From sequence record OQ067374.1: 64,000 nt of DNA. The stretch is one strand, 5' to 3'. The position numbers were made by a program, and so were the translations under genes. Under the pieces are notes generated by a model. It saw nothing but the letters and a program-made list of their open reading frames with translations. It ran no database searches and was not told the DNA's origin. The DNA is from Escherichia phage a20. Each line of letters starts with the position of its first letter. Position 1 is the first letter of the stretch. This document shows positions 29,522 to 42,943 of the stretch, in pieces.

Positions 29522-30015
29522 AACAATGGTTCCCAATCAACAATCACAATTTCTAGTTTAGTGGAATATGTATCAAGAATTTCTTCAATGATATCCCAGT
29601 TTCCACCACCTATACCTGCTCCAATTCTTGGCATGTAAATCACAGGCTTTGCTATCTTATTCTTTCCGAATTTATTTAATTCTATTATACAATTCATTAA
29701 AGCAGAGTACTCAAAATTAGGTCCGGGCTCAAACTGTGTATAAAGATTAAAGCAATAAGCTTTATGGGTCTTAAAATATTTTTCATAAACCGAATAGGAA
29801 CCGAGTTTAGACTCGTCTCCGAATTCGGTTTGAAGTTTATCGGCTTCTAAAATTTTTGGATAAGCCTTTGCTAATTGGCCTGCTACACCGGCGCCCATTG
29901 TATGAAAACAATTACACCCATGAGCAATATTATTACCTTTAGAAAACAGGGCGACAATATCGCCCTTGATATAGTTTTTAATCACTTGCTGCAAGTCCTC
30001 TATTATAAGAGTCAA
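29518..30015 (-). CDS. Macro-domain-like protein (putative ADP-ribose binding/hydrolase)
   Basis: NIAHGCNCFHTMGAGVAGQLAKA resembles the macrodomain NAAN...GGGVAGAL signature; 165 aa. Confidence 0.6.
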   Translation of the reverse strand: MTLIIEDLQQVIKNYIKGDIVALFSKGNNIAHGCNCFHTMGAGVAGQLAKAYPKILEADKLQTEFGDESKLGSYSVYEKYFKTHKAYCFNLYTQFEPGPNFEYSALMNCIIELNKFGKNKIAKPVIYMPRIGAGIGGGNWDIIEEILDTYSTKLEIVIVDWEPLL

Positions 30016-30325
30016 CTAGACGGTCCACCATAGAATTGCATGCTGCCTTATCTTTAGGTTCCGCCACCGAGCATTCTAATATTTGCCATTTTTTATAGTA
30101 TCTTTTAATTAAGGTAGACGCCTTGAACCTACTAGACGCCCCATCTTTTTCTCCGTCTTTATACGCATATAACAATTTTTGTGAAAAATCTACTTTACAC
30201 TCTTGACTTTTACCACAATAATCAGACGCCGTTCTGTTTGTATACTCCGTTACATCAGTATATGTAGTATTAGCAAGAGCGTTAAATGAAACCAAGCCAA
30301 CTATTAAAGCCAACATTTTGGTCAT
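29978..30325 (-). CDS. Hypothetical secreted protein
   Basis: 115 aa, signal peptide MTKMLALIVGLVSFNALA. Confidence 0.55.
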   Translation of the reverse strand: MTKMLALIVGLVSFNALANTTYTDVTEYTNRTASDYCGKSQECKVDFSQKLLYAYKDGEKDGASSRFKASTLIKRYYKKWQILECSVAEPKDKAACNSMVDRLVDSYNRGLAASD

Positions 30326-30864
30326 TCTTTTATTTCCAGTAGTTTATTTGATTTAAGGTAATTAGCCTTTTCTAGGACTTCAGAAGCATATTTACTTCCA
30401 GCACTTGTCTTCCATCCCGCATTATATGAGGATATAGCTTTTCTTATATCCCCGTTATGTATATTTAACCAGTAAGAAAATTCGATATAAGCCCATCTGG
30501 TTGAATTAGACCGCTTAGATAGCATTTTCTTAATTTGGGCATCAGTCATATTATAACCAAGCTGGTTAATTCTTGCCCTCATTGTTGGTAGATAATTTTG
30601 GAACATTCCATACGCATGGTGACCTTTCTTATCTTTAAGATTAATGCCGGCAGATGATTCTTGCCATAGTATTGCGGCCATTATGTATCCAAGTCCTTTC
30701 TTATGCATATTTTCATGCGTTTTAAATTTTCCGTCCTTAGAAAACTGTTCCCCAAACTGATAAGCATAATTCAAGTTATCGAGTTGGACATTACTAAAAG
30801 TATGCTCGGAGCTATGTGCTGATAATGAAAGAGCAAATAGACCAGCGAGTAGTGCTTTTCTCAT
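30322..30864 (-). CDS. Secreted lytic-transglycosylase-like protein
   Basis: Signal peptide MRKALLAGLFALSLSA; AAILWQESS...YGMFQ resembles SLT catalytic ES...GLMQ motif. Confidence 0.6.
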   Translation of the reverse strand: MRKALLAGLFALSLSAHSSEHTFSNVQLDNLNYAYQFGEQFSKDGKFKTHENMHKKGLGYIMAAILWQESSAGINLKDKKGHHAYGMFQNYLPTMRARINQLGYNMTDAQIKKMLSKRSNSTRWAYIEFSYWLNIHNGDIRKAISSYNAGWKTSAGSKYASEVLEKANYLKSNKLLEIKE

Positions 30865-30872
30865 GTTTACCT

Positions 30873-31331
30873 CTAGATTTTAATCACTGCTTTAGAAGCT
30901 TTTCCTGGTAGTCGTTTACTGTTAATAATAGCCATTCTGCATTGAAGAGTCTTCATTTTGAATGCCGGATTTTCGCGACAAACTGTAAGTCCCAACCAAA
31001 GATTTCCATCAGTTATTTCTAAACGGCCTGGACGGTATTCGACACCTTCGACAAAATCTTCATCAACATCTGGACGTGCCGGCATTGATAAAAATTCTGC
31101 AACTTCTTTAACATGATTTTTTACTTTACGAAATAATTCAAAAACGTAATTCTCATCTATTTCTCTCTGGATGGCACGATCTAAGAGATGTTGAGAATAC
31201 TTGATATGAAAGCCTGGTAGTCCAAGAGACTTTGCAGCATCTTTTATACTGGCATTTATTTTGCGGAACTCCGTTTCAAAGATTCGACGGAGTTTATTAC
31301 GGCGGATAAAAACGTCTGAATTGATAGTCAT
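30873..31331 (-). CDS. regB: Endoribonuclease RegB
   Basis: 152 aa, MTINSDVFIRRNKLRR...LQCRMAIINSKRLPGKASKAVIK matches T4 RegB. Confidence 0.9.
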   Translation of the reverse strand: MTINSDVFIRRNKLRRIFETEFRKINASIKDAAKSLGLPGFHIKYSQHLLDRAIQREIDENYVFELFRKVKNHVKEVAEFLSMPARPDVDEDFVEGVEYRPGRLEITDGNLWLGLTVCRENPAFKMKTLQCRMAIINSKRLPGKASKAVIKI

Positions 31332-31359
31332 TTTGATTTCTCCTCTAGTTGACAGGTCT

Positions 31360-32744: not shown

Positions 32745-33280
32745 TGCATTCCAATCACAAAAAATTGAGGACGAGCATTACCGCCGATGCAATATTTGCT
32801 TTTGCAGCAGTGCTGTACTGTTTTAATGTGGACATTGTAAATCTTATCCATATCAGGAGCTTTAATAGGCTCGTCAATTATATACAGAATACGAGAAAGC
32901 GTTAATCCACGAAATTTAGAACCTTCATTGCCAATAAAACTACGAACAGAATCAGTAAATAAACGGAATCGAATATCATCGCTAGAATAACGAGAAAATT
33001 CTTTTTCAATGTTGCCAGCAGAAATTTTAGCGTAAGCTGAAGTATTAGAAAGAACAATAACTGTTCCACCATCATACAGCCAATTAACAGCAAAATTAGT
33101 TACTGCGGTCGATTTACCTGATTGTCTGCCGCCGTCTAAACGAAGTGTACAGTACTGCTTGAGTACGTCTTCAAATGGTGGGGCATAACCGTTCTTACAA
33201 ATTTCTTCTACTCTAGCATCAGAATGGTGTGTAAAAGCATTCATCAGGGATAGATAAGGACCAGTTAAAAATGTTCTCAT
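32741..33280 (-). CDS. Hypothetical P-loop protein
   Basis: GGRQSGKSTA Walker A-like motif; 179 aa. Confidence 0.55.
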   Translation of the reverse strand: MRTFLTGPYLSLMNAFTHHSDARVEEICKNGYAPPFEDVLKQYCTLRLDGGRQSGKSTAVTNFAVNWLYDGGTVIVLSNTSAYAKISAGNIEKEFSRYSSDDIRFRLFTDSVRSFIGNEGSKFRGLTLSRILYIIDEPIKAPDMDKIYNVHIKTVQHCCKSKYCIGGNARPQFFVIGMQ

Positions 33281-33452
33281 TTAGTTTCTCTTTTAGGTTG
33301 GGCCATTCCGTGGCACATGTTAGGTCCTTCGACTCGCTATGTAAACCCATTACCGCATTGCGCTCGACCTTATTACAGGTTGGAAAAGGTACATCACTCA
33401 GAGGACTCGACGTTCATGAGGAGAGGTTGCGTTTCCCTTTATTAGGCAAGAA

Positions 33453-33782
33453 TTATACTCTAGGCTTTTGAGCTTGTTTGGTATTGGATTCCCATGCGGC
33501 TTTGGTAATTTTGTTAGCGGCATAACCAAAGGCATTAGATAGAACACCTTTAGAGTTGAATACATCCAATCCAATAAGTACACCGGCTGTGTTAAATTTA
33601 GGAGCAAAGTACGCATTAGTTTTAGAAAGAGCTTTTTTCAATTCAGGGTCTTGAACCAAGCCATCAAAAACGCCTTTACTATTTACTTTGTATGTTACTT
33701 TGGGATTTTTACCTTCTTCGATAGCAGCTTTCTGTTCCGCAGATAATGTAACTTCAGTGATAAACTCCTGATATGTTTTCAT
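33453..33782 (-). CDS. Internal-protein-like (capsid-targeting N-terminus MKTYQEFITE)
   Basis: N-terminus matches T4 IP capsid targeting sequence MKTYQEFIAE; variable C-terminus. Confidence 0.7.
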   Translation of the reverse strand: MKTYQEFITEVTLSAEQKAAIEEGKNPKVTYKVNSKGVFDGLVQDPELKKALSKTNAYFAPKFNTAGVLIGLDVFNSKGVLSNAFGYAANKITKAAWESNTKQAQKPRV

Positions 33783-33807
33783 TTTGTTCCTATTGTTTTA
33801 ATTTATG

Positions 33808-34122
33808 TTATTCTTTAGGGAAGTTTTTAGAGTATGCATCATAAAGTTTATTACCAATACGACGGAAGACTTTAGCTGCAAAACGGTTTTCAGGGTTTTT
33901 AATCATGATTTGCATCATGTAAGTTCCTGCATCCGAAAGAGCTTCTTCATAGTACCCATTAATTTCTTTAAGAGTCCTACGTTTACCACCAGGACCGTCA
34001 ACAGTAATTTTCCATTTACCTGTAGAAGTGCGGCTCGGTGGCTCAACTTGTTCAATCCAAATATAACCACCTTCAACGCGTTGGTTGGCGGATTCTGCAA
34101 TAAATTCTTTATACGTTTTCAT
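33808..34122 (-). CDS. Internal-protein-like (MKTYKEFIAE N-terminus)
   Basis: CTS-like N-terminus; early promoter GTTTAC-N18-TATAAT upstream. Confidence 0.7.
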   Translation of the reverse strand: MKTYKEFIAESANQRVEGGYIWIEQVEPPSRTSTGKWKITVDGPGGKRRTLKEINGYYEEALSDAGTYMMQIMIKNPENRFAAKVFRRIGNKLYDAYSKNFPKE

Positions 34123-34185
34123 TTTTGTTTCCTTGTTTGTTTTGATAGAGTAATTATACCATATTAATACTTAAGCGTAAACAAT

Positions 34186-34446
34186 TTAAGCTTTACCGCC
34201 AGAAATAATTCCGAAGTTGTTAAAATCATATCCAATATCGTCAACATCTACTTTAGGACTTGCTACAACATAAGCAATTTCACTACGTTTTGCATAGGTG
34301 TTGATTTCTTTACCATCGCCACCTAAGAAAGAATACCCATTACGTTTTAATGAGCCAAAGTCTTCCGCATCACCAATGAAAGCTTTAACTTTAAATTTAG
34401 GACCTTTGGCATCTGCTTCAATGATAAATTCTTGATACATTTTCAT
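34186..34446 (-). CDS. Internal-protein-like (MKMYQEFIIE N-terminus)
   Basis: CTS-like N-terminus, 86 aa. Confidence 0.65.
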   Translation of the reverse strand: MKMYQEFIIEADAKGPKFKVKAFIGDAEDFGSLKRNGYSFLGGDGKEINTYAKRSEIAYVVASPKVDVDDIGYDFNNFGIISGGKA

Positions 34447-34452
34447 TTTTCC

Positions 34453-34866
34453 TTAGTAAATTGATTTACCATAGTATTTGTACCAAGTCGGACGTTGAGC
34501 AATTTTTTCATCTAAGCGTGCTTGACTTATCGCAATGGACGCTTCGGACGGGACATAATTATTACGAAATTCGGCAGGGATGTCGGAAATATCCTGGACT
34601 GTCGTGTCCTTGATTTTGAAACCACGTTTCAAACATTCAGCGATTAGCTCGATTTGACGTAAACGTAAAAATTCGAGTTTGTCGTAAAAGAATGTTACGT
34701 GACCTGTGCCTAAGATAAATGTTGGAGAGATTTTAAAATCCTTTACACGTTTACCGTTTTGAACATGTTTACGGACTGCACCAAATACGCGTGGTAATTC
34801 ACGATACTCAGCCATAAGATGTTGGTCGGACAGTTCAGAAACAAGTGTTAAATTGATACGAGTCAT
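34453..34866 (-). CDS. denV: Endonuclease V (pyrimidine dimer DNA glycosylase) DenV
   Basis: [34 protein letters not shown]... matches T4 endo V; ATG 34866 with SD GGAGGAAA. Confidence 0.92.
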
Positions 34867-34893
34867 AATTTCCTCCAAGTAGTTGATGAATGT

Positions 34894-34922
34894 ATAGTAT
34901 CAAAGTCCTTGGAGGAAGTAAA
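34894..34922 (-). promoter_or_regulatory. T4-early-type promoter (GTTTAC-N17-TACTAT) nested in 10-bp inverted repeat that includes the denV SD
   Basis: Arms TTCCTCCAAG (34870-34879) / CTTGGAGGAA (34908-34917). Confidence 0.45.
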
Positions 34923-34924
34923 CA

Positions 34925-35206
34925 CTATTTTTCTGAAGCGCCTGAAATATATTTTTCAAGACGTTGTTTCATTAGCGAGCCGTTCTTAGCGATTTCTTCC
35001 GGTTTATCGCACATACGCAACAATGCTTCAAGCTTAACGATATCGCTGGTGCGCTCAAATTTGCGAGTGTCTATCTTACTAGCAAGTTCAGAAATACGTG
35101 CTAATAGACTTTCAGCTTCAACCAAAGCTGCACCTAGCTTAGTTGCAAATGTGTCAGTAGCTTCATTAAGAATAGATTCTGATAAAAATTCACTATATGT
35201 TTTCAT
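34925..35206 (-). CDS. Internal-protein-like ([11 protein letters not shown]-terminus)
   Basis: CTS-like start at ATG 35206; helical C-terminal region. Confidence 0.6.
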
Positions 35207-35691
35207 ATATACGCTTTCCAAGTTCCTGTTTTAAATGTTGAGATTACGCGTTTCGCGCGATTAGGTGTCTGACGATACCATTTAGATTGGGCGAGATTTA
35301 CTGCCGCCTCGTCCCAACGTTTCTGTTGAAGCATACGAAGAGAATTAGTAAAACCAGCGACGCCTGCTACACCCATTTGGAAGACCATATTGACCAATGC
35401 ACATCGACGAACCGCATCTAAAGAATCATATACCGGTTTAAGTTTAGCATTACCCAAGATTCCGCGAACGGCTTTATCAACGTCTTCATTAAATAGCTTT
35501 TCAGCCTCATCAAGGGTAATTGTACCGTTGCATTTACGACCGATCATTCTGTCAAGTTCAGCTTTAGCTACGGCTAAAGACGGATTCTTTGTTACTAAAT
35601 GGCCTATGCCAATCGTCCAAAAGCCTTCAGTGTCTTTGTATAAAGTCAGTCTAAGACCTTCGTCATTACGAAGCATTTCAAATATATTCAT
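35203..35691 (-). CDS. e: Endolysin (T4 lysozyme)
   Basis: [32 protein letters not shown]...; catalytic E11/D20/T26 context conserved. Confidence 0.95.
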
Positions 35692-35694
35692 AAT

Positions 35695-35730
35695 ACCTCC
35701 CACGTTTATAGGAGGTATTTATTACTTATA
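35695..35730 (-). promoter_or_regulatory. SD-sequestering hairpin with embedded late-promoter-like box upstream of e
   Basis: Minus-strand AATAAATA then ACCUCC-UAUAAACGUG-GGAGGU-AUUAUG; same arrangement as described for T4 gene e. Confidence 0.5.
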
Positions 35731-36184
35731 GGAGGGTAGTGAGCACCTTATATAATGATTTGCCCATTACATATTCCCATTGAGAAGGTTTAATTAAAGC
35801 GAATGCATCAAATTCAGGAATCTGACGTCCGTCTGGGAATGTATGATAGGAATTACAAACACTATTTCTGAATTGCTCGTGCTCTACAGGGATGGTATAT
35901 AAGAACAGATGAATATTCTTATTGTCTGAGTAATGATGTTCACCTAGGTCTTTCAGGAAGGCAGGGTCATATTGTGTAAACCCAGTTTCTTCTTCGCATT
36001 CACGAATAGCGGCTTCAATAGGAGATTCGCCAGGTTCGACACGGCCTTTAGGAATATCCCACCGATGAGCTAAAGAACCTTTAGGACGAGAACCAGTTAC
36101 ACGCCCCATGAATAATTCTTTATCTTCGGTAAGGAAAATAATACCGGCTGATAGTTCTTTCACTTTATTTTTCTTACTCATCAT
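35726..36184 (-). CDS. nudE: Nudix hydrolase NudE
   Basis: Nudix box GRVEPGESPIEAAIRECEEETG; 152 aa. Confidence 0.85.
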   Translation of the reverse strand: MMSKKNKVKELSAGIIFLTEDKELFMGRVTGSRPKGSLAHRWDIPKGRVEPGESPIEAAIRECEEETGFTQYDPAFLKDLGEHHYSDNKNIHLFLYTIPVEHEQFRNSVCNSYHTFPDGRQIPEFDAFALIKPSQWEYVMGKSLYKVLTTLL

Positions 36185-36425
36185 CTCGGTCCCATGATTT
36201 GGCCATTAATTCGGACATAAATTCTTCAATGCGCGTTTCTTTAGATGGACTTTCACTATTAGAGACCGCAAGTTTGTAATCTGCAATAGGACAGAACATA
36301 TCAAGGTCCATATTAAGATCGTCTTTGATTTTTTCTTCTGACACATCTTTATCGTATGTGTACAGATAACTATCACATGATTCTGATTTAATGTAAATTG
36401 CTATACTCATCTCAAATTCCTGCAT
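36174..36425 (-). CDS. Hypothetical acidic protein
   Basis: 83-aa ORF. Confidence 0.55.
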   Translation of the reverse strand: MQEFEMSIAIYIKSESCDSYLYTYDKDVSEEKIKDDLNMDLDMFCPIADYKLAVSNSESPSKETRIEEFMSELMAKSWDRDDE

Positions 36426-36886
36426 TCGGTAATAAAACGTTCAACTTCATTATTCTTGGCCTTTATCTTGTCTTTACGTTCTTGTAAACTACTTTTAACA
36501 AGATTAATAATGATGCCTACAGTACCTCCACCAATAATACCACCAATAATACTTACAATAGTAGATGCTAATAAGATAGCGATAATATCTAGTACAGCAA
36601 AGGCACTTACTTTAGTACTAAAAAACCATACCGACGGTACAAATATAATCCATCCTGTTATCCATTGGCACTTATTGAAAAACTTTTCAAGCTCAGCTTG
36701 GGTTGTTCGTATTACTTCATCGATAGGTTGATATCCATTAATGTATCTGTTCACGATAATACCTGCTGGCTGGTTGATTTTAAATTCTTGGCAAATATGT
36801 TTCACTAAGTAGGATGGACATCCTGTCCAATCTACTGAATAGTATGAAATACCTTCGTCGCCATCGTCTATATTATTGTTAATCAT
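36407..36886 (-). CDS. Hypothetical membrane protein
   Basis: 159 aa, hydrophobic helices with GG-rich segment IIGGIIGGGTVGII. Confidence 0.6.
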   Translation of the reverse strand: MINNNIDDGDEGISYYSVDWTGCPSYLVKHICQEFKINQPAGIIVNRYINGYQPIDEVIRTTQAELEKFFNKCQWITGWIIFVPSVWFFSTKVSAFAVLDIIAILLASTIVSIIGGIIGGGTVGIIINLVKSSLQERKDKIKAKNNEVERFITECRNLR

Positions 36887-37368
36887 TACCAGCCTTCCAT
36901 AGGGAATTCCAGATAAACTTGGGCATTGACACGAATTTCATTGGTAATCTTTTTAACTCGGTCTGTATTACGAGATACACGTCCGAACCAACGCCATCCG
37001 TTACTAATTGCACGAGAACCAGTGTGCCATGTTTGCCAATCAAACTGAAGAAGAGTACGATCTGGAGCTTCCCATTCAGTGTTTAAACAACAAACAGACC
37101 ATGTAGGAGCAACGAAATCGGTGAATCTAATATCATGGTCTGCAACTAGTTTAGCAATAGCTCCGATATCATGAATCATAATACCTGGGGCTAATAAAGA
37201 TTTTCTGCTATGGCTAGCCGTTTTCTCGGTGGTCTCATAAGAAGACGACCAGTACCATTTACGTCCAGTTGCAACATATCGTAATGAATCAACTAAAGAC
37301 GTAGGTGGATTTACCTTATCTCGGAACTCTTCGAACATTGAGTCAATATCATTATTTTGGTTTCGCAT
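36886..37368 (-). CDS. Hypothetical protein
   Basis: Start at ATG 37368 (MRNQNN) with SD AAGGAG; Trp-rich. Confidence 0.55.
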   Translation of the reverse strand: MRNQNNDIDSMFEEFRDKVNPPTSLVDSLRYVATGRKWYWSSSYETTEKTASHSRKSLLAPGIMIHDIGAIAKLVADHDIRFTDFVAPTWSVCCLNTEWEAPDRTLLQFDWQTWHTGSRAISNGWRWFGRVSRNTDRVKKITNEIRVNAQVYLEFPMEGW

Positions 37369-37417
37369 GTTAACTCCTTTATTATCCAAAAGGAGGACCG
37401 GAGTCCTCCGTATTATT

Positions 37418-38010
37418 TTATTTCAAAGAGTTAATATATTCTTGTACATCAGCAGAAGTGGTTTCGACGCCGGCTGGAGTGCCATTGAACGTTTCAACAC
37501 GAGTCAGAGTGTCTTCGATATCAACCTTAGTCAGTGCAGCTATTTCAATTACATCATCGGCCGTAGAGATACCAAGGGCATTGGCTGCTCGAGTTTCACG
37601 AATGTATTCGAGTTTGATTGCCAGGTTCTGACGAGCATCGTCAAGTTCAACCACCTTACGAGCAATTTCAATTCGCATAGCGGCATACCCGTCAGCCTTT
37701 GTATTAAGTTGTTCGGCAGTTCGACGATACAGAAGACCAAGCTTAGCATGCATGGTAACATCTTGTCCTTCAGCCAGGAGCTTACGAATTTCACGTTCCT
37801 TAGAAGCGGCTTGCTTGTTCTTTTCATTAACAAGTTCGCGAATACGTTTTTCTTCATTAATAGATTTAACAGAAGCCGTTTTTAGTTCTTTGATTTGGGT
37901 AATCAACTTATCTGCAGCTGCGTTATACTGTTCTTCGACAGTCAGATTTTTAGCCATAGCAGTACCCAGTTTAGTGCGGATGAATTCGACAAGTTTCTTC
38001 AGTGTGTTCA
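37418..38010 (-). CDS. Hypothetical coiled-coil protein (possibly PspA/IM30-like)
   Basis: 197 aa, long helical heptad-like sequence; ATG 38010 (MNTLKK) with SD AAGGT. Confidence 0.5.
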
Positions 38011-38081
38011 TATTATTACCTTTCAATTGGTGGTTTATTATCCAACGAGAGCATTATACTCTGCTCTCAAGAGTTTGTAAA

Positions 38082-38309
38082 TTATTTTTTAATCAAATTG
38101 ACATAAAACTTGGCGTCTTCGGGGTGCATGCCTTCGCAGTATTCTTCAACCATGAACTTCTTAACAGCTTCATAAGGACCACTCAGATTAAGCTCAGTTG
38201 TCCAGAACTTGGAATCTTGGACTGAATCGATACGAACTTCAGGGTGTCGGTTGCGAATAACTTCTTCGGTGTATTCATAATCAACGACATCAATACTAAC
38301 TTTAGCCAT
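38082..38309 (-). CDS. Hypothetical acidic protein
   Basis: 75-aa ORF. Confidence 0.55.
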   Translation of the reverse strand: MAKVSIDVVDYEYTEEVIRNRHPEVRIDSVQDSKFWTTELNLSGPYEAVKKFMVEEYCEGMHPEDAKFYVNLIKK

Positions 38310-38355
38310 TTTGTTTTCCTCTTGATTTGATAGGACTACTATAACATAAACTTAC

Positions 38356-38520
38356 TTAGATGTAAATTATTTCAACGTCACCTTTAGCTGCTTTATAACC
38401 TTCAGCCCAAGATACAACAGAGTTTTTATCTGAGGATTCAAATTCAGGCATTGGACTTTCACCAATATTCACACAGTATGTTTCTTCATTTTCATCGAAC
38501 CAAATAATTAAAGTAGTCAT
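38356..38520 (-). CDS. Hypothetical small protein (54 aa)
   Basis: ORF MTTLIIWFDENEETYCVNIG... with SD GAGGAG; below ORF-track cutoff. Confidence 0.45.
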   Translation of the reverse strand: MTTLIIWFDENEETYCVNIGESPMPEFESSDKNSVVSWAEGYKAAKGDVEIIYI

Positions 38521-38588
38521 TTTGTTTACTCCTCTGTAGTTGATAAGTCTATAGTATCACCATCCTTGGTGCTTGTACATCATTATTT

Positions 38589-38894
38589 TTAATTTTTCCA
38601 ACTTAACAACTTGTAGTGTCCTTCATTCATACGTGGTTTATCCCAAGAAATACTAATATATGATTCACTGTCAATAGAAATCGCCGGGTTTTTCTCTACC
38701 GTAAGACCTTCACTTTCCAGCCATTCAATAGTATTTGCGCATAAATCGGAAGAACACCTCATCGGGAACCGGCAAGATTTTTCACCTTTAGCTGCAGTGT
38801 TATACATCTTTTCTAAAATACGCTTTTGCACGTTTTTAAAAATAGTTTCAGCAGATTCTTCAGATTTTTTATTCAGTTCAGTGTAAAGACTCAT
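38589..38894 (-). CDS. Hypothetical protein
   Basis: 101-aa ORF. Confidence 0.55.
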   Translation of the reverse strand: MSLYTELNKKSEESAETIFKNVQKRILEKMYNTAAKGEKSCRFPMRCSSDLCANTIEWLESEGLTVEKNPAISIDSESYISISWDKPRMNEGHYKLLSWKN

Positions 38895-38982
38895 AATATT
38901 CTCCTCTGTGGTTGATAAGTCTATAGTATCATGTCCTTAGAAGAAGTAAACATCTTTATGAAATATTTTTATGCCCTAGATG

Positions 38983-39011
38983 CCAAAAAGCCCCAACCAT
39001 AAGGAAGGGGC
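38983..39011 (-). terminator. Rho-independent terminator (repeat family)
   Basis: Minus-strand GCCCCUUCCUUAUGGUUGGGGC followed by UUUUU. Confidence 0.55.
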
Positions 39012-39017
39012 ATTCTA

Positions 39018-39482
39018 TTATTTAATTTGTTTAGCAGACCAGATACGGTCTTTAATAAGTTTTTGGATATCTTCAACATACTCAAGGCTATGAGCGTGAG
39101 GATTATCTTTGAAGCTATGTGCTCGTGCCAGTTTCTGTCCTTCTGTTTTGATTACTAAAAGCTCTTTAAGAATTGCTTCATACTTAGAAATAATTCCTTT
39201 GGCGATATTTTTTTCTTGAGCTGCTTTAGGGTCCGCTTTTGGCGCAGGTGCTTTACCTGTAGCTTTCTGGAACAATTCACCTGATGCAGCTAGGCTTTTA
39301 AAAACTCGGCTAACAGTATTAGCATTAGTAAAACCTTCGGCTTTAAAATCTCTAATAAAACGGAAACGTTCTTCATCAGAGGCGTCTTTGTAAGAATATT
39401 TACCTGCTTGAATTGCTGCAATCGCAGCGGCTTTTACATCTGAACTAGATTGTTCAGTCAAAAATTCAGCGTATGATTTCAT
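39018..39482 (-). CDS. Internal-protein-like (MKSYAEFLTE N-terminus)
   Basis: CTS-like N-terminus; 154 aa, Lys/Ala-rich. Confidence 0.6.
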   Translation of the reverse strand: MKSYAEFLTEQSSSDVKAAAIAAIQAGKYSYKDASDEERFRFIRDFKAEGFTNANTVSRVFKSLAASGELFQKATGKAPAPKADPKAAQEKNIAKGIISKYEAILKELLVIKTEGQKLARAHSFKDNPHAHSLEYVEDIQKLIKDRIWSAKQIK

Positions 39483-39526
39483 GTTGCTTTTCCTAAGTTA
39501 ATTAACTTATCTATTTATTATTATGC

Positions 39527-39555
39527 CAAAAAGCCCCAACCTTTCGGAAGGGGCT
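39527..39555 (-). terminator. Rho-independent terminator (repeat family)
   Basis: Minus-strand AGCCCCUUCCGAAAGUUGGGGCU followed by UUUUU. Confidence 0.55.
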
Positions 39556-39599
39556 AAGCCTTGCGGCAACCTTGTCGGGGTTTCCACCTGCTAAGGCAA

Positions 39600-39860
39600 G
39601 TGTTTGTACGAAACGCCGGGATTCGAACCCGGTTATTAAGCAGTTGACGCTACTCAATATTTTTAAAAGGCCATATCTCGACCATATCCGAACGTTCCGT
39701 CAAAAACGCTACTCGGCTTACGGCAAAGATATTTCCTCGAATCGATAATTCTGTGCGCCGTTTCTGCTGTGATGTAAGGGGATATTAACAAATCGTAAAG
39801 ATTTATTAAGACCAGTCCTTACTCAGGGAACATCAGTCCGACGACTTACCGGTAGCGACC
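39600..39860 (-). ncRNA. Candidate stable small RNA / tRNA-like locus
   Basis: 385-bp ORF-free gap next to tRNA cluster; CCGGGUUCGAAUCCCGG T-arm motif at 39616-39632; no full cloverleaf found. Confidence 0.3.
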
Positions 39861-39867
39861 CGGCTTC

Positions 39868-40212
39868 TTATTTTGGCATATCATCAATTTGCTCTCGACG
39901 CCGACGCCATAGATTAATCGCTTCATTAACACATTCGGCGTTTGGTATATGACGGCAATAATATAATGATTCGCGTTTCTGGAATCGATGTTGCAATGGG
40001 ATTTCGTTTAAAAGGTCTTTACGGTCAAAGTATTCAAAACTAGTTAACCCGTAACGATTTTTAATGAACTTCCAATGTCCAAATTCATTTTGAACATAAA
40101 TGTAATCGGCATGCTGATACAGCGAATTAATCAATCGATGAGAAATAACTGTATCATATTCGTTAAAATAAAACGTTAAATCATGAACTACCAGATAAAT
40201 ATTGCCTTTCAT
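39868..40212 (-). CDS. Hypothetical protein
   Basis: Start at ATG 40212 (MKGNIYLVVHD) with SD GAGGAAAAT; ORF-track start would overlap tRNA-Arg. Confidence 0.55.
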   Translation of the reverse strand: MKGNIYLVVHDLTFYFNEYDTVISHRLINSLYQHADYIYVQNEFGHWKFIKNRYGLTSFEYFDRKDLLNEIPLQHRFQKRESLYYCRHIPNAECVNEAINLWRRRREQIDDMPK

Positions 40213-40230
40213 ATTTTCCTCACTTAAAGT

Positions 40231-40306
40231 TGGTCGAGACAGAAGGATTCTAACCTTCAACCTACGGATTAGAAGTCCGTTGCTCCATACAATTGAGCTA
40301 TGCCTC
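40231..40306 (-). tRNA. tRNA-Arg (anticodon UCU), CCA encoded
   Basis: Hand-folded cloverleaf: acceptor CGAGGCA/TGTCTCG, anticodon stem ACGGA/TCCGT, loop CTTCTAA, T-arm GAAGG-TTAGAAT-CCTTC. Confidence 0.8.
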
Positions 40307-40312
40307 GAATAT

Positions 40313-40386
40313 ATGACCCAGACCAGATTCGAACTGGTAACCTTTCCCTTATGAGGGGACTGCTGCTAACCATTGAGCTACAGGGC
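40313..40386 (-). tRNA. tRNA with anticodon CAU (Met or Ile2), CCA not encoded
   Basis: Hand-folded: T-arm ACCAG-TTCGAAT-CTGGT, anticodon loop CTCATAA, acceptor with one U-U mismatch and one G-U. Confidence 0.65.
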
Positions 40387-40448
40387 CTAAATAACTTTCT
40401 ATTATGAAAGGCACTTTAGAGCACCTTTGGTAATAGAGGGTACGAATT

Positions 40449-40474
40449 AATAATAACACATAATTCTTAAAGCA
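40449..40474 (-). promoter_or_regulatory. Middle-promoter-like element upstream of tRNA genes
   Basis: Minus-strand TGCTTTA, 12 nt, TATTAT. Confidence 0.3.
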
Positions 40475-40982
40475 AATCAATCATTTTAACAGTCGGCAAA
40501 ACAATTTCTTCTTCAATATAAGCGAATTCAACACGTTCAACTACACGCAAGAAATCATAGTCGTAGTATTCAGAAGCATAGCCAAGAATATCAATAAGTC
40601 CTTGAGATATCTCATCGCCTTTCACAAAGAACAGGTCGAATACACGCGATTCGTCTTCTTCAGATTTATTACCAAGGTCGACTTCAATATCAAAGACCTT
40701 TTTAATGAATTCTGGATAAAGCTGGTCTGAGAACAGCCCTTCAACCAAGTATTCATAGATTAAAAGCGAGCAATCACTGAATGGTGTATTACCACAGTAA
40801 CGTTCAGCTTTAGTGCTGGAATGACGACTCTTAAATTTCTTCAAGAGATATTTAAACTGTTGGAGCTCATGCTCTTCCACACCAAATAATGTTTTGGTTT
40901 TATAGTTGTCGCCGTCATTTTCCCAAGTAGTGACATCAATTACGTAACCCTTAGGAATTGTACTGCCTAAACAAATATTCAT
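40467..40982 (-). CDS. Hypothetical acidic protein
   Basis: 171-aa ORF with SD GGTGAG. Confidence 0.6.
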   Translation of the reverse strand: MNICLGSTIPKGYVIDVTTWENDGDNYKTKTLFGVEEHELQQFKYLLKKFKSRHSSTKAERYCGNTPFSDCSLLIYEYLVEGLFSDQLYPEFIKKVFDIEVDLGNKSEEDESRVFDLFFVKGDEISQGLIDILGYASEYYDYDFLRVVERVEFAYIEEEIVLPTVKMIDLL

Positions 40983-40986
40983 TTAC

Positions 40987-41277
40987 TCACCGTACCATAT
41001 TAATGTAATTATATTCAATGCAACGTAATTTCAAAGGATTCTTGAAAATATCATATTCAAGAGGGCCTTTTTCTGTTTCAATAAAGAAATCAAAGTTAAC
41101 TGTGTTAAATTTATCATCTTCACAGAGTAATTTAACCTGTGAAGATGAACGGTCGATATAAACCTTTTCAACCTCAAAGTTAGTCAGAATACCGTAGTCA
41201 TCGACTAGTGCTTTAGCTGCACGTTGATCGCTTTCATATCCATTCTCAATGGACGATACTTTAGCATAAAGAATCAT
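40987..41277 (-). CDS. Hypothetical protein
   Basis: 96-aa ORF. Confidence 0.55.
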   Translation of the reverse strand: MILYAKVSSIENGYESDQRAAKALVDDYGILTNFEVEKVYIDRSSSQVKLLCEDDKFNTVNFDFFIETEKGPLEYDIFKNPLKLRCIEYNYINMVR

Positions 41278-41636
41278 GAATGTTCCACCACTTCAAAAGT
41301 ATGTGCACTGACAATCTGGTACCAGTCAAAATTTTCTTCAGCATTTTTGTAGATTTCACGAAGAGCTTCAACAGTTTTTCCTGTAGCAACAAGATCGTCA
41401 ATACCGCCAAGAGGATAACAGTCGTAACCAGCAAACAGAAGGAAATTAATAGTTTCTGTAGGTTCTGGATGCAGAATACCGTTATCATCTACCACTTCAA
41501 AGAAAGTGTAAGAAGGAGTACAAGTTTTAATCCAAGCCCATGCTTGAGCCGCTGAATCAAATGGTCTGCGTATCAAACGACAATCATGGTCTTTAGAAGG
41601 ATTTGCTTCAAAATCCGCATATACATGATATTTCAT
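41274..41636 (-). CDS. Hypothetical protein
   Basis: Start at ATG 41636 (MKYHVYADFE) with SD AAGGTGGG. Confidence 0.55.
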   Translation of the reverse strand: MKYHVYADFEANPSKDHDCRLIRRPFDSAAQAWAWIKTCTPSYTFFEVVDDNGILHPEPTETINFLLFAGYDCYPLGGIDDLVATGKTVEALREIYKNAEENFDWYQIVSAHTFEVVEHS

Positions 41637-41637
41637 T

Positions 41638-41844
41638 TTACCCACCTTTTGCAATTTTATCCATAACGATAGCGATTAAGCCGATTAGAAATGCTACTAC
41701 CAATGAGATAGAATTTTCTGTTGTTGTCAGTAGTCCACAAATGAATCCTACAAACATCGAAAAACTAAAAGCCATTGAAGCAATTACTACAGCAACATTA
41801 CGAATCAGTTCAGCGCGTTTCATTTTATTTCTCCATTTACTCAT
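41638..41844 (-). CDS. Hypothetical small membrane protein
   Basis: 68 aa with two hydrophobic helices. Confidence 0.55.
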   Translation of the reverse strand: MSKWRNKMKRAELIRNVAVVIASMAFSFSMFVGFICGLLTTTENSISLVVAFLIGLIAIVMDKIAKGG

Positions 41845-41860
41845 TTGTTTTGATAGGACT

Positions 41861-41890
41861 ACTATAACATAGTCCTATCAGCATGTAAAC
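41861..41890 (-). promoter_or_regulatory. T4-early-type promoter (GTTTAC-N18-TATAGT) inside perfect 10-bp inverted repeat
   Basis: Arms GATAGGACTA (41852-41861) / TAGTCCTATC (41870-41879) flank the -10. Confidence 0.45.
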
Positions 41891-41893
41891 TAC

Positions 41894-42181
41894 TTACAGA
41901 AGAGTTTTTGCAATAATTTTAAGCTGAGCTACAGAAATATGCTTAGCTTTAAACAGTGCAGTCTCTTCAGCCGGAGAGATAACAATAGTAGCGCCATCTT
42001 TCTTAGCAGACCATCCATCCCCTAAGTAAACAGTACCTTTTACTTCTTCGCCGTCAACCAGGCCGATCATTGGTTTACCCTCACGTCCTTTATTTGCTTT
42101 AATAACTTCGGAAGTAAGGGTTGCTTCGGTTAGAGTAGAAACGTTAGCATCAGGTGATATAAATTCTTTATAGGTTTTCAT
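41894..42181 (-). CDS. Internal-protein-like (MKTYKEFISP N-terminus; ipI-locus position)
   Basis: CTS-like N-terminus; directly upstream of 57B as ipI is in T4. Confidence 0.65.
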   Translation of the reverse strand: MKTYKEFISPDANVSTLTEATLTSEVIKANKGREGKPMIGLVDGEEVKGTVYLGDGWSAKKDGATIVISPAEETALFKAKHISVAQLKIIAKTLL

Positions 42182-42215
42182 TTTATTTCCTTGAGGTCGT
42201 TTATTTGATAGGATG

Positions 42216-42245
42216 ATAGTAACACGCCATCATCCTTATGTAAAC
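42216..42245 (-). promoter_or_regulatory. T4-early-type promoter (GTTTAC-N18-TACTAT) inside 8-bp inverted repeat
   Basis: Arms AGGATGAT (42210-42217) / ATCATCCT (42229-42236). Confidence 0.45.
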
Positions 42246-42257
42246 TGTTTTGTGAAA

Positions 42258-42943
<686 letters not shown>

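Follow-up and report, generated by a model that had tools for sequence, protein, structure and literature searches.

Six genes sharing a T4-type capsid targeting signal in Escherichia phage a20, with candidate injected anti-defence payloads

The DNA of Escherichia phage a20 (sequence record OQ067374.1), of which we analysed a stretch of 64,000 nucleotides (nt; hereafter the window), carries six minus-strand open reading frames (ORFs) whose products share the start MK(T/M/S)Y(Q/K/S/A)EF(I/L) and continue into otherwise different proteins, here called payloads. They lie at 33453–33782, 33808–34122, 34186–34446, 34925–35206, 39018–39482 and 41894–42181, exactly the coordinates of a first-pass annotation of this DNA, which had likened the common start to the capsid targeting signal of the T4 internal proteins and had seen in each gene a candidate for an injected anti-defence effector. 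Both the membership of the set and the likeness hold up: every testable sequence feature agrees with the T4 signal, and the ORF at 41894–42181 is the ortholog of T4 IPI.

The window belongs to a Mosigvirus (RB69-like) phage. Positions 33300–35300 are 99.5% identical to NRG-P0074 and 98.5% to RB69, and the nearest complete genome, that of BEU50, is collinear with the window over nearly its whole length in blocks that are 97.6–99.1% identical. Gene order is as in T4. Read in rising plus-strand coordinates, opposite to transcription, the series is vs.8, three signal-bearing genes, denV, a fourth such gene, the lysozyme gene e and nudE, followed, farther along, by two tRNA genes, ipI, 57B, 57A and gene 1. 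Four of the signal-bearing genes surround denV in the interval from vs.8 to e, and one lies beside 57B; these are the two internal-protein loci of T4, and both are known to be variable. The only member of the set outside them is 39018–39482. An Rfam scan of 33000–42500 found two tRNAs and no other RNA family.

The signal is real and constrained. A looser pattern, M[KR].[YFW].[ED][FWY][ILVM], matched only these six ORFs when all six frames of the 64 kb were scanned, and MK.Y.EF[IL], observed six times, is expected 0.002 times from the amino-acid frequencies and was absent from 200 shuffles. Met1, Lys2, Tyr4, Glu6, Phe7 and Ile/Leu8 are present in all six, with Tyr4 and Phe7 invariant; T4 mutagenesis has tied residues 4 and 7 to targeting and residues 8 and 10 to cleavage by the prohead protease gp21, and fusion experiments have established that foreign proteins enter the T4 head when given just the first ten residues of IPIII (reviewed in PMC9026906). 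The gp21-type cleavage motif (I/L)8-x-Glu10 is found in five of the ORFs, while the sixth, 41894–42181, has I-S-P at residues 8–10 and L-T-E at 17–19, as in T4 IPI. Motif residues are fixed despite the use of synonymous codons (ACA/ACG/ACC, TAT/TAC, GAA/GAG, ATA/ATC/ATT), with 22 synonymous and 30 non-synonymous pairwise differences over codons 1–8; as the signal residues are held through synonymous changes, the constraint acts on the protein. Distant relatives keep the signal too, even when the payload is only 33% identical.

The six appear to be the full set of this phage, because a scan of the whole BEU50 genome yielded the same six signal-bearing ORFs and none further. BEU50 also encodes, outside the stretch corresponding to the window, the prohead machinery on which such a signal would act, with gp21, gp22, gp68 and gp67 at 88%, 77%, 81% and 60% identity to their T4 counterparts. 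Six members across three loci had been described as a large repertoire; the number is indeed twice the three of T4, and a third site is seen, but it equals the six of RB69 (five signal-bearing genes in the region scanned, plus the IPI homolog gp155 known from the literature).

The ORF at 41894–42181 (95 amino acids) is assigned as ipI from its Pfam family, its match to a solved structure, its identity to T4 IPI and its neighbourhood directly downstream of 57B, as in T4. Residues 20–95 match the Pfam family PF11634 (IPI_T4) over the whole profile (positions 1–76 of 76, E = 1e-49, 166.8 bits against a cut-off of 25), a match not given by any of the other five ORFs. The same residues align end to end with residues 1–76 of PDB 2JUB chain A (five substitutions, E = 2e-41), and the mature domain is 92.7% identical to T4 IPI. 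Because residue 1 of the solved IPI* is matched by residue 20 here, gp21 is predicted to cut after Leu17-Thr18-Glu19, as in T4, giving a 76-residue mature IPI*. The payloads are thus not all uncharacterised: the product of this gene is a nuclease inhibitor that is already known and whose structure has been solved.

Of the four genes around denV, 33808–34122 (104 amino acids, signal MKTYKEFIAE) is Ip10. It falls into one 90%-identity cluster with 'Ip10 [Enterobacteria phage Pol]' (CAA84455.1) and has 72% identity to the Ip10 from Shigella phage SP18; the name is already given to it by a GenBank record taken up in a 2026 protein collection. A predicted cut after Glu10 would leave a mature protein of 94 residues with an isoelectric point (pI) of 9.6. 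The payload is present in 189 phage genomes, including Tequatrovirus, and reaches the Enterobacter phages CC31 and PG7 at 48–55% identity. In RB69 the corresponding ORF124c carries one additional G close to the 3' end (window 33808–33900; RB69 NC_004928 segment 10000–10120), which gives an altered and shorter C-terminus and a product of 90 rather than 104 amino acids.

The gene at 34925–35206 encodes an Ip5-like internal protein of 93 amino acids counted from its ATG (the mechanical ORF list begins at an upstream TTG, 35221), with a second L-N-E at residues 13–15. It is 91.6% identical to 'ip5' of phage VR20, matches the PHROG phrog_3499 'internal head protein' (E = 1e-46) and is so named in RefSeq for its RB69 ortholog; 496 phage genomes share the payload. 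The stop codon of the lysozyme gene e and the ATG of this gene overlap (ATGA), and the two should be translated together. An internal head protein is likewise encoded at 34186–34446 (86 amino acids, signal MKMYQEFIIE, mature form of 76 residues with a pI of 6.4), which matches phrog_2667 'internal head protein' (E = 7e-21) and corresponds to RB69 ORF125c, named accordingly in RefSeq. This gene begins 6 nt past the denV stop codon, and its payload is found in 217 phage genomes.

The remaining gene of this group, 33453–33782 (109 amino acids, MKTYQEFITE, mature form of 99 residues with a pI of 9.7), is 'hypothetical' among the matches listed, including all named members of its cluster; one match at 32% identity is labelled 'RNA polymerase ADP-ribosylase'. 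Its payload is present in 90 phage genomes, nearly all Mosigvirus. A 33%-identical relative, P0084, keeps the signal as MKTYQQFITESTQRINE, and relatives of 33453–33782 retain an (I/L)-x-Glu-like cleavage motif despite insertions. A full HMMER scan of 1.84 billion representatives with this payload returned one real relative; the other matches were to long, repeat-rich proteins, hit at many short stretches, one of them of MBG-domain repeats, and were treated as compositional. Residues ~60–95 are the part that weakly matches such long bacterial repeat proteins (one of MBG domains, another with recurring 'N-x-x-G-x-L' motifs), and the payload has two motifs of that kind, FNTAGVL and FNSKGVL, a resemblance that is probably compositional as well.

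After removal of the first 10 residues, no pair among the six payloads gave a BLASTP E-value below 3, in keeping with the earlier statement that the C-terminal regions are mutually unrelated. PHROGs places 33453–33782 and Ip10 in one family, because the signal alone is common to both; the profile–profile alignment spans residues 1–12 only, and paralogy of the two was rejected. Searches of Pfam and NCBIfam gave no match above threshold for the five payloads other than IPI, and sub-threshold Pfam matches to CsgH, NUMOD1, GemA and MerR were dismissed as noise. The mature proteins are predicted to be 76–144 residues long (8–16 kDa); four of the six are basic (pI 9.0–9.7) and two are near neutral (6.3 and 6.4). 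With members at 95–100% identity, the payload families extend over 90, 189, 217, 496 and 511 phage records, and some reach other T4-like genera at 30–75% identity; the homolog searches made for alignment returned only 2–10 close relatives per query, so that these alignments are shallow.

The largest of these families is that of 39018–39482 (154 amino acids, MKSYAEFLTE, mature form of 144 residues with a pI of 9.6), the gene that lies between the tRNA genes and e.8. Its payload is present in 511 phage genomes; in 397 of these, mostly Tequatrovirus, the identity is 60–80%. Throughout the matches listed it is called 'hypothetical protein'. Among its relatives the propeptide has 10, 11 or 15 residues and always places (L/M)-x-E right before the conserved mature domain, which is how a cleaved targeting peptide would be expected to look. 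Structure prediction, which had been proposed for each mature domain, was usable for this protein and not for Ip10, whose model was too poor (predicted local distance difference test score, pLDDT, of 49) and was set aside. In the AlphaFold model of 39018–39482 (pLDDT 74), a disordered Ala/Pro/Lys linker lies between an N-terminal bundle made up entirely of helices and a helical hairpin at the C-terminus. Against the PDB the model matched only ferritin-like helical bundles (E > 0.5, template modelling score ≤ 0.31) and against a viral library only its own family, and no functional inference was drawn.

The site itself differs between phages. In RB27 a homolog of 39018–39482 lies between rnaC and e.8. 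RB69 has no DNA match to 38906–39528, with flanks that are 95–99% identical, and carries at the tRNA/e.8 site e.8 together with ORF149c, a different signal-bearing gene whose family is found in 165 phage genomes. T4 has neither a homolog of 39018–39482 nor a member of the ORF149c family there. Relatives of ORF149c match only residues 1–94 of its payload, for which reason RB69 ORF149c and ORF148c (NC_004928 segment 19632–20194) look like a single signal-bearing gene split by a frameshift.

Two terminator-like GC hairpins, each followed by U5, bracket 39018–39482 on the minus strand, upstream at 39523–39554 and downstream at 38980–39011; they are copies of a 32-nt direct repeat that are 91% identical to each other. 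A simple terminator scan missed them, but on folding both give a GC stem with U5 behind it; the z-scores, −1.8 and −1.1, are modest. Sequence similar to this repeat is also found upstream of rI in RB69 (NC_004928 segment 4332–4368). Within the bracketed unit a late-promoter-like octamer, AATAAATA, lies at 39512–39519 (minus strand), 37 nt upstream of the start codon; it matches the T4 late promoter TATAAATA in seven of eight positions, and the same variant occurs 32 nt upstream of gene e. Judged from the aligned genomes, cassettes of this kind have been swapped among related phages.

Published work recognises two internal-protein loci in T4-type phages (PMC12373910). We tentatively propose, at somewhat less than even confidence, that the tRNA (or rnaC)/e.8 junction of T-even phages is a third variable site for injected proteins, not recognised until now, which would hold at least two unrelated signal-bearing families (present in ~511 and ~165 genomes, and 'hypothetical' among the matches listed). 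The same proposal has these families, together with that of 33453–33782, supply injected inhibitors of defences that have not yet been paired with a phage counter-measure, for instance restriction enzymes specific for arabinosylated DNA.

Sigma-70/early-type promoter-like sites lie on the minus strand upstream of Ip10 and the ORF that follows it (34153–34181; TTTACG, 17-nt spacer, TATAAT) and upstream of ipI (42216–42244; TTTACA, 17-nt spacer, TACTAT). They belong to a wider minus-strand family of strong sites, TTTAC(A/G), 17-nt spacer, TAnnnT, with further members at 38053–38081, 38338–38366 and 41861–41889; these sites recur in the intergenic gaps of the variable region and also form 51-nt direct repeats with 63–78% identity. 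Relative to RB69 and NRG-P0074, the gene content of the stretch from nudE to the tRNA genes (36000–38000, 38906–39528) is altered by insertions and replacements of small ORFs, a turnover typical of T4-type variable regions. As a separate observation, the BEU50 record (193 kb, UNVERIFIED_ORG) holds at 136424–137922 a second copy of the vs.1/regB region (window 29845–31346) with 76% identity, which suggests that the record mixes two T4-like phages; the window is unaffected.

The injected anti-defence role that had been invoked for the T4 internal proteins is by now experimentally established for all three. T4 Ip1, Ip2 and Ip3 are coinjected with the DNA, and each blocks one variant of the GmrSD-type restriction enzymes without cross-protection (PMC12373910); IPIII is required to infect strain ECOR17 and, expressed in the host without its signal, still works (PMC9391042, a preprint that also supports the role). 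RB69 DNA is arabinose-bearing and is cut by GmrSD, and RB69 IPI has been reported to prevent restriction (PMC6024577). The sole Mosigvirus tested in a 2026 study was sensitive to the GmrSD-family enzyme BrxU, and arabinosylated DNA was cut in vitro (PMC13390438).

Against this background we consider it likely that the six ORFs are the complete T4-type internal protein set of a20, that is, targeted, gp21-trimmed, packaged and injected anti-defence proteins. The first ten residues (M-K-T-Y-x-E-F-I/L-x-E) would bind the precursor to the scaffolding core of the assembling prohead, and gp21 would then cut after (I/L)-x-Glu, at residue 10 in five of the proteins and at residue 19 in the IPI ortholog, leaving the freed mature domain of 76–144 residues in the head with the DNA. 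At infection it would be ejected ahead of phage gene expression and would bind and disable a host defence that otherwise destroys the incoming modified DNA. By analogy with T4, what the IPI ortholog inhibits is most likely a modification-dependent restriction enzyme of the GmrSD type, and each of the other five would most likely block a variant of its own within this enzyme family or some other first-line defence. Like other Mosigvirus phages, a20 most likely carries arabinose rather than glucose on its DNA, and since the DNA sugar probably differs, the range of enzymes inhibited by its IPI may differ from that of T4 IPI. Recombination would be able to swap payloads between phages by way of the 5' coding block that the genes have in common, together with the promoters and terminators on either side.

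These steps stand on different ground. The alignments speak directly for the signal and cleavage motifs, for the identity of IPI and Ip10 and, as far as genome comparison goes, for cassette swapping between related phages. Packaging, cleavage and injection in a20, as well as the targets of five payloads, are steps that we infer, and only for the Ip1 ortholog does the blocking of a defence rest on homology to a tested protein.

Several observations weigh against the proposal. Literature searches found no virion proteomics for a20 or a close relative, and no payload except IPI has a known fold or family by Pfam, NCBIfam or, for the one model, structure search, so that the targets are guessed. 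The two near-neutral mature forms differ from the basic internal proteins of T4. No exact T4 late promoter stands upstream of any of the six genes, only variants with seven of eight positions, and the sites preceding Ip10 and ipI are strong early-type ones, not late ones. T4 ipI, ipII and ipIII likewise have no exact late promoter directly upstream, and because they share this trait it is no argument here against packaging. Finally, the signal may be dispensable for some of the genes, because RB69 departs from it twice. Compared with window positions 35177–35206, ORF127c of the RB69 reference has lost 1 nt in codon 5 and gained 1 nt at a point 22 nt further on (NC_004928 segment 11341–11426), changes that scramble signal residues 5–12 and restore the payload frame, and RB69 ORF123c has Ala in place of Glu10. 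Either a sequencing error or a genuine loss of targeting may lie behind the scrambling in ORF127c; the signal is intact at this place in both the window and NRG-P0074.

One alternative accepts packaging and injection and takes the five payloads other than IPI to be DNA-associated filler that condenses, neutralises or helps eject DNA, their sequence mattering little. It would account for the four mature forms that are small and basic, for the want of any match beyond IPI to a known fold or family, and for the free interchange of payloads among phages. We regard it as unlikely, since payload families that are preserved at 95–100% identity in dozens to hundreds of genomes, and at 30–75% in other genera, argue for a specific folded function, two of the mature forms are not basic, and all three T4 internal proteins, which were once viewed in the same way, proved to be specific enzyme inhibitors.

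A second alternative, which seems to us distinctly improbable, holds that some of the six are left out of the virion and act in the cytoplasm after fresh synthesis, the motif being a relic of common descent or of recombination at the 5' end. The early-type promoters directly upstream of Ip10 (with 33453–33782 following) and of ipI would suit such a role, as would the position of 34186–34446 so close behind denV, which in T4 is an early gene. Further points in its favour are the retention of the payload frame in RB69 ORF127c behind a scrambled signal, the Ala10 of ORF123c and the activity of signal-less, host-expressed T4 IPIII cited above. Against it, the motif is conserved at the amino-acid level through synonymous changes and is kept in distant relatives; the signals of the window and NRG-P0074 are intact where that of RB69 is not, and T4 ipI is packaged yet has no exact late promoter directly upstream. 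That the shared 30 nt act as a nucleic-acid element, for translation initiation or as a recombination linker, rather than as a protein signal is hardly credible: the ribosome-binding site and first 30 nt do form a direct-repeat family with 61–83% DNA identity, and conserved flanks could mediate shuffling (PMC2839356), but substitutions are frequently synonymous while the residues are fixed, the ten residues are by themselves enough to bring foreign proteins into T4 heads (PMC9026906), and a role as recombination linker is compatible with targeting and so is no alternative to it.

We therefore retain the reading of the six genes as a targeted and injected anti-defence set. Injected proteins of this kind precede any phage gene expression and so help decide which strains can be infected. 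All three T4 internal proteins have now been paired with a restriction enzyme, Ip2 and Ip3 in 2025, and for that reason each further payload is a ready probe for new defence variants in wild E. coli. The window offers five candidate payloads, two of them without an internal-protein annotation among the matches listed. The gene class has been known since the 1990s, and its concept, signal and evolutionary pattern are established; what is added here is modest. Two widespread payload families merit being annotated as internal proteins, and there is evidence that a third variable site exists; the finding is thus of use for the candidate genes it supplies and for improved annotation rather than for any new biology.

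The closest known counterpart is T4 IPI, which the a20 protein resembles in its length of 95 amino acids, its site beside 57B, its 19-residue propeptide ending in (L/I)-T-E and an identical predicted mature N-terminus, and from which it differs by the five substitutions in the mature domain and by a propeptide that reads MKTYKEFISPDANVSTLTE rather than the MKTFKEFTSTTTPVSTITE of T4. T4 IPII and IPIII share with the a20 genes the N-terminal signal, the size class, the denV/e neighbourhood and a payload that differs between phages. They have no homolog among the non-IPI payloads of a20 (best BLASTP E-value 0.19), and their genes both lie between denV and e, whereas in a20 denV separates three of the genes from e.

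Polymorphic internal proteins of the Ip4–Ip13 type have been described in T-even phages (Repoila et al., 1994, as cited in PMC12373910). With these a20 shares the gene at 33808–34122, which clusters with Ip10 of Pol, and that at 34925–35206, which is 91.6% identical to an annotated ip5; in contrast, 33453–33782 and 39018–39482 bear no internal-protein name among the matches listed. Repoila and colleagues reportedly proposed in 1994 that internal-protein genes, which have a conserved leader, are shuffled by way of conserved flanks. For T4-type phages a promoter/stem-loop (PeSL) shuffling model has been published (Arbiol et al., 2010; PMC2839356). The gene at 39018–39482 resembles a PeSL cassette in being bracketed by near-identical stem-loop terminators, in having a promoter-like site of its own and in being replaced by other genes in RB69. 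It differs in that its promoter-like site is late-like and not early, a comparison made from sequence alone; in its overall arrangement the cassette fits the model of shuffling mediated by stem-loops.

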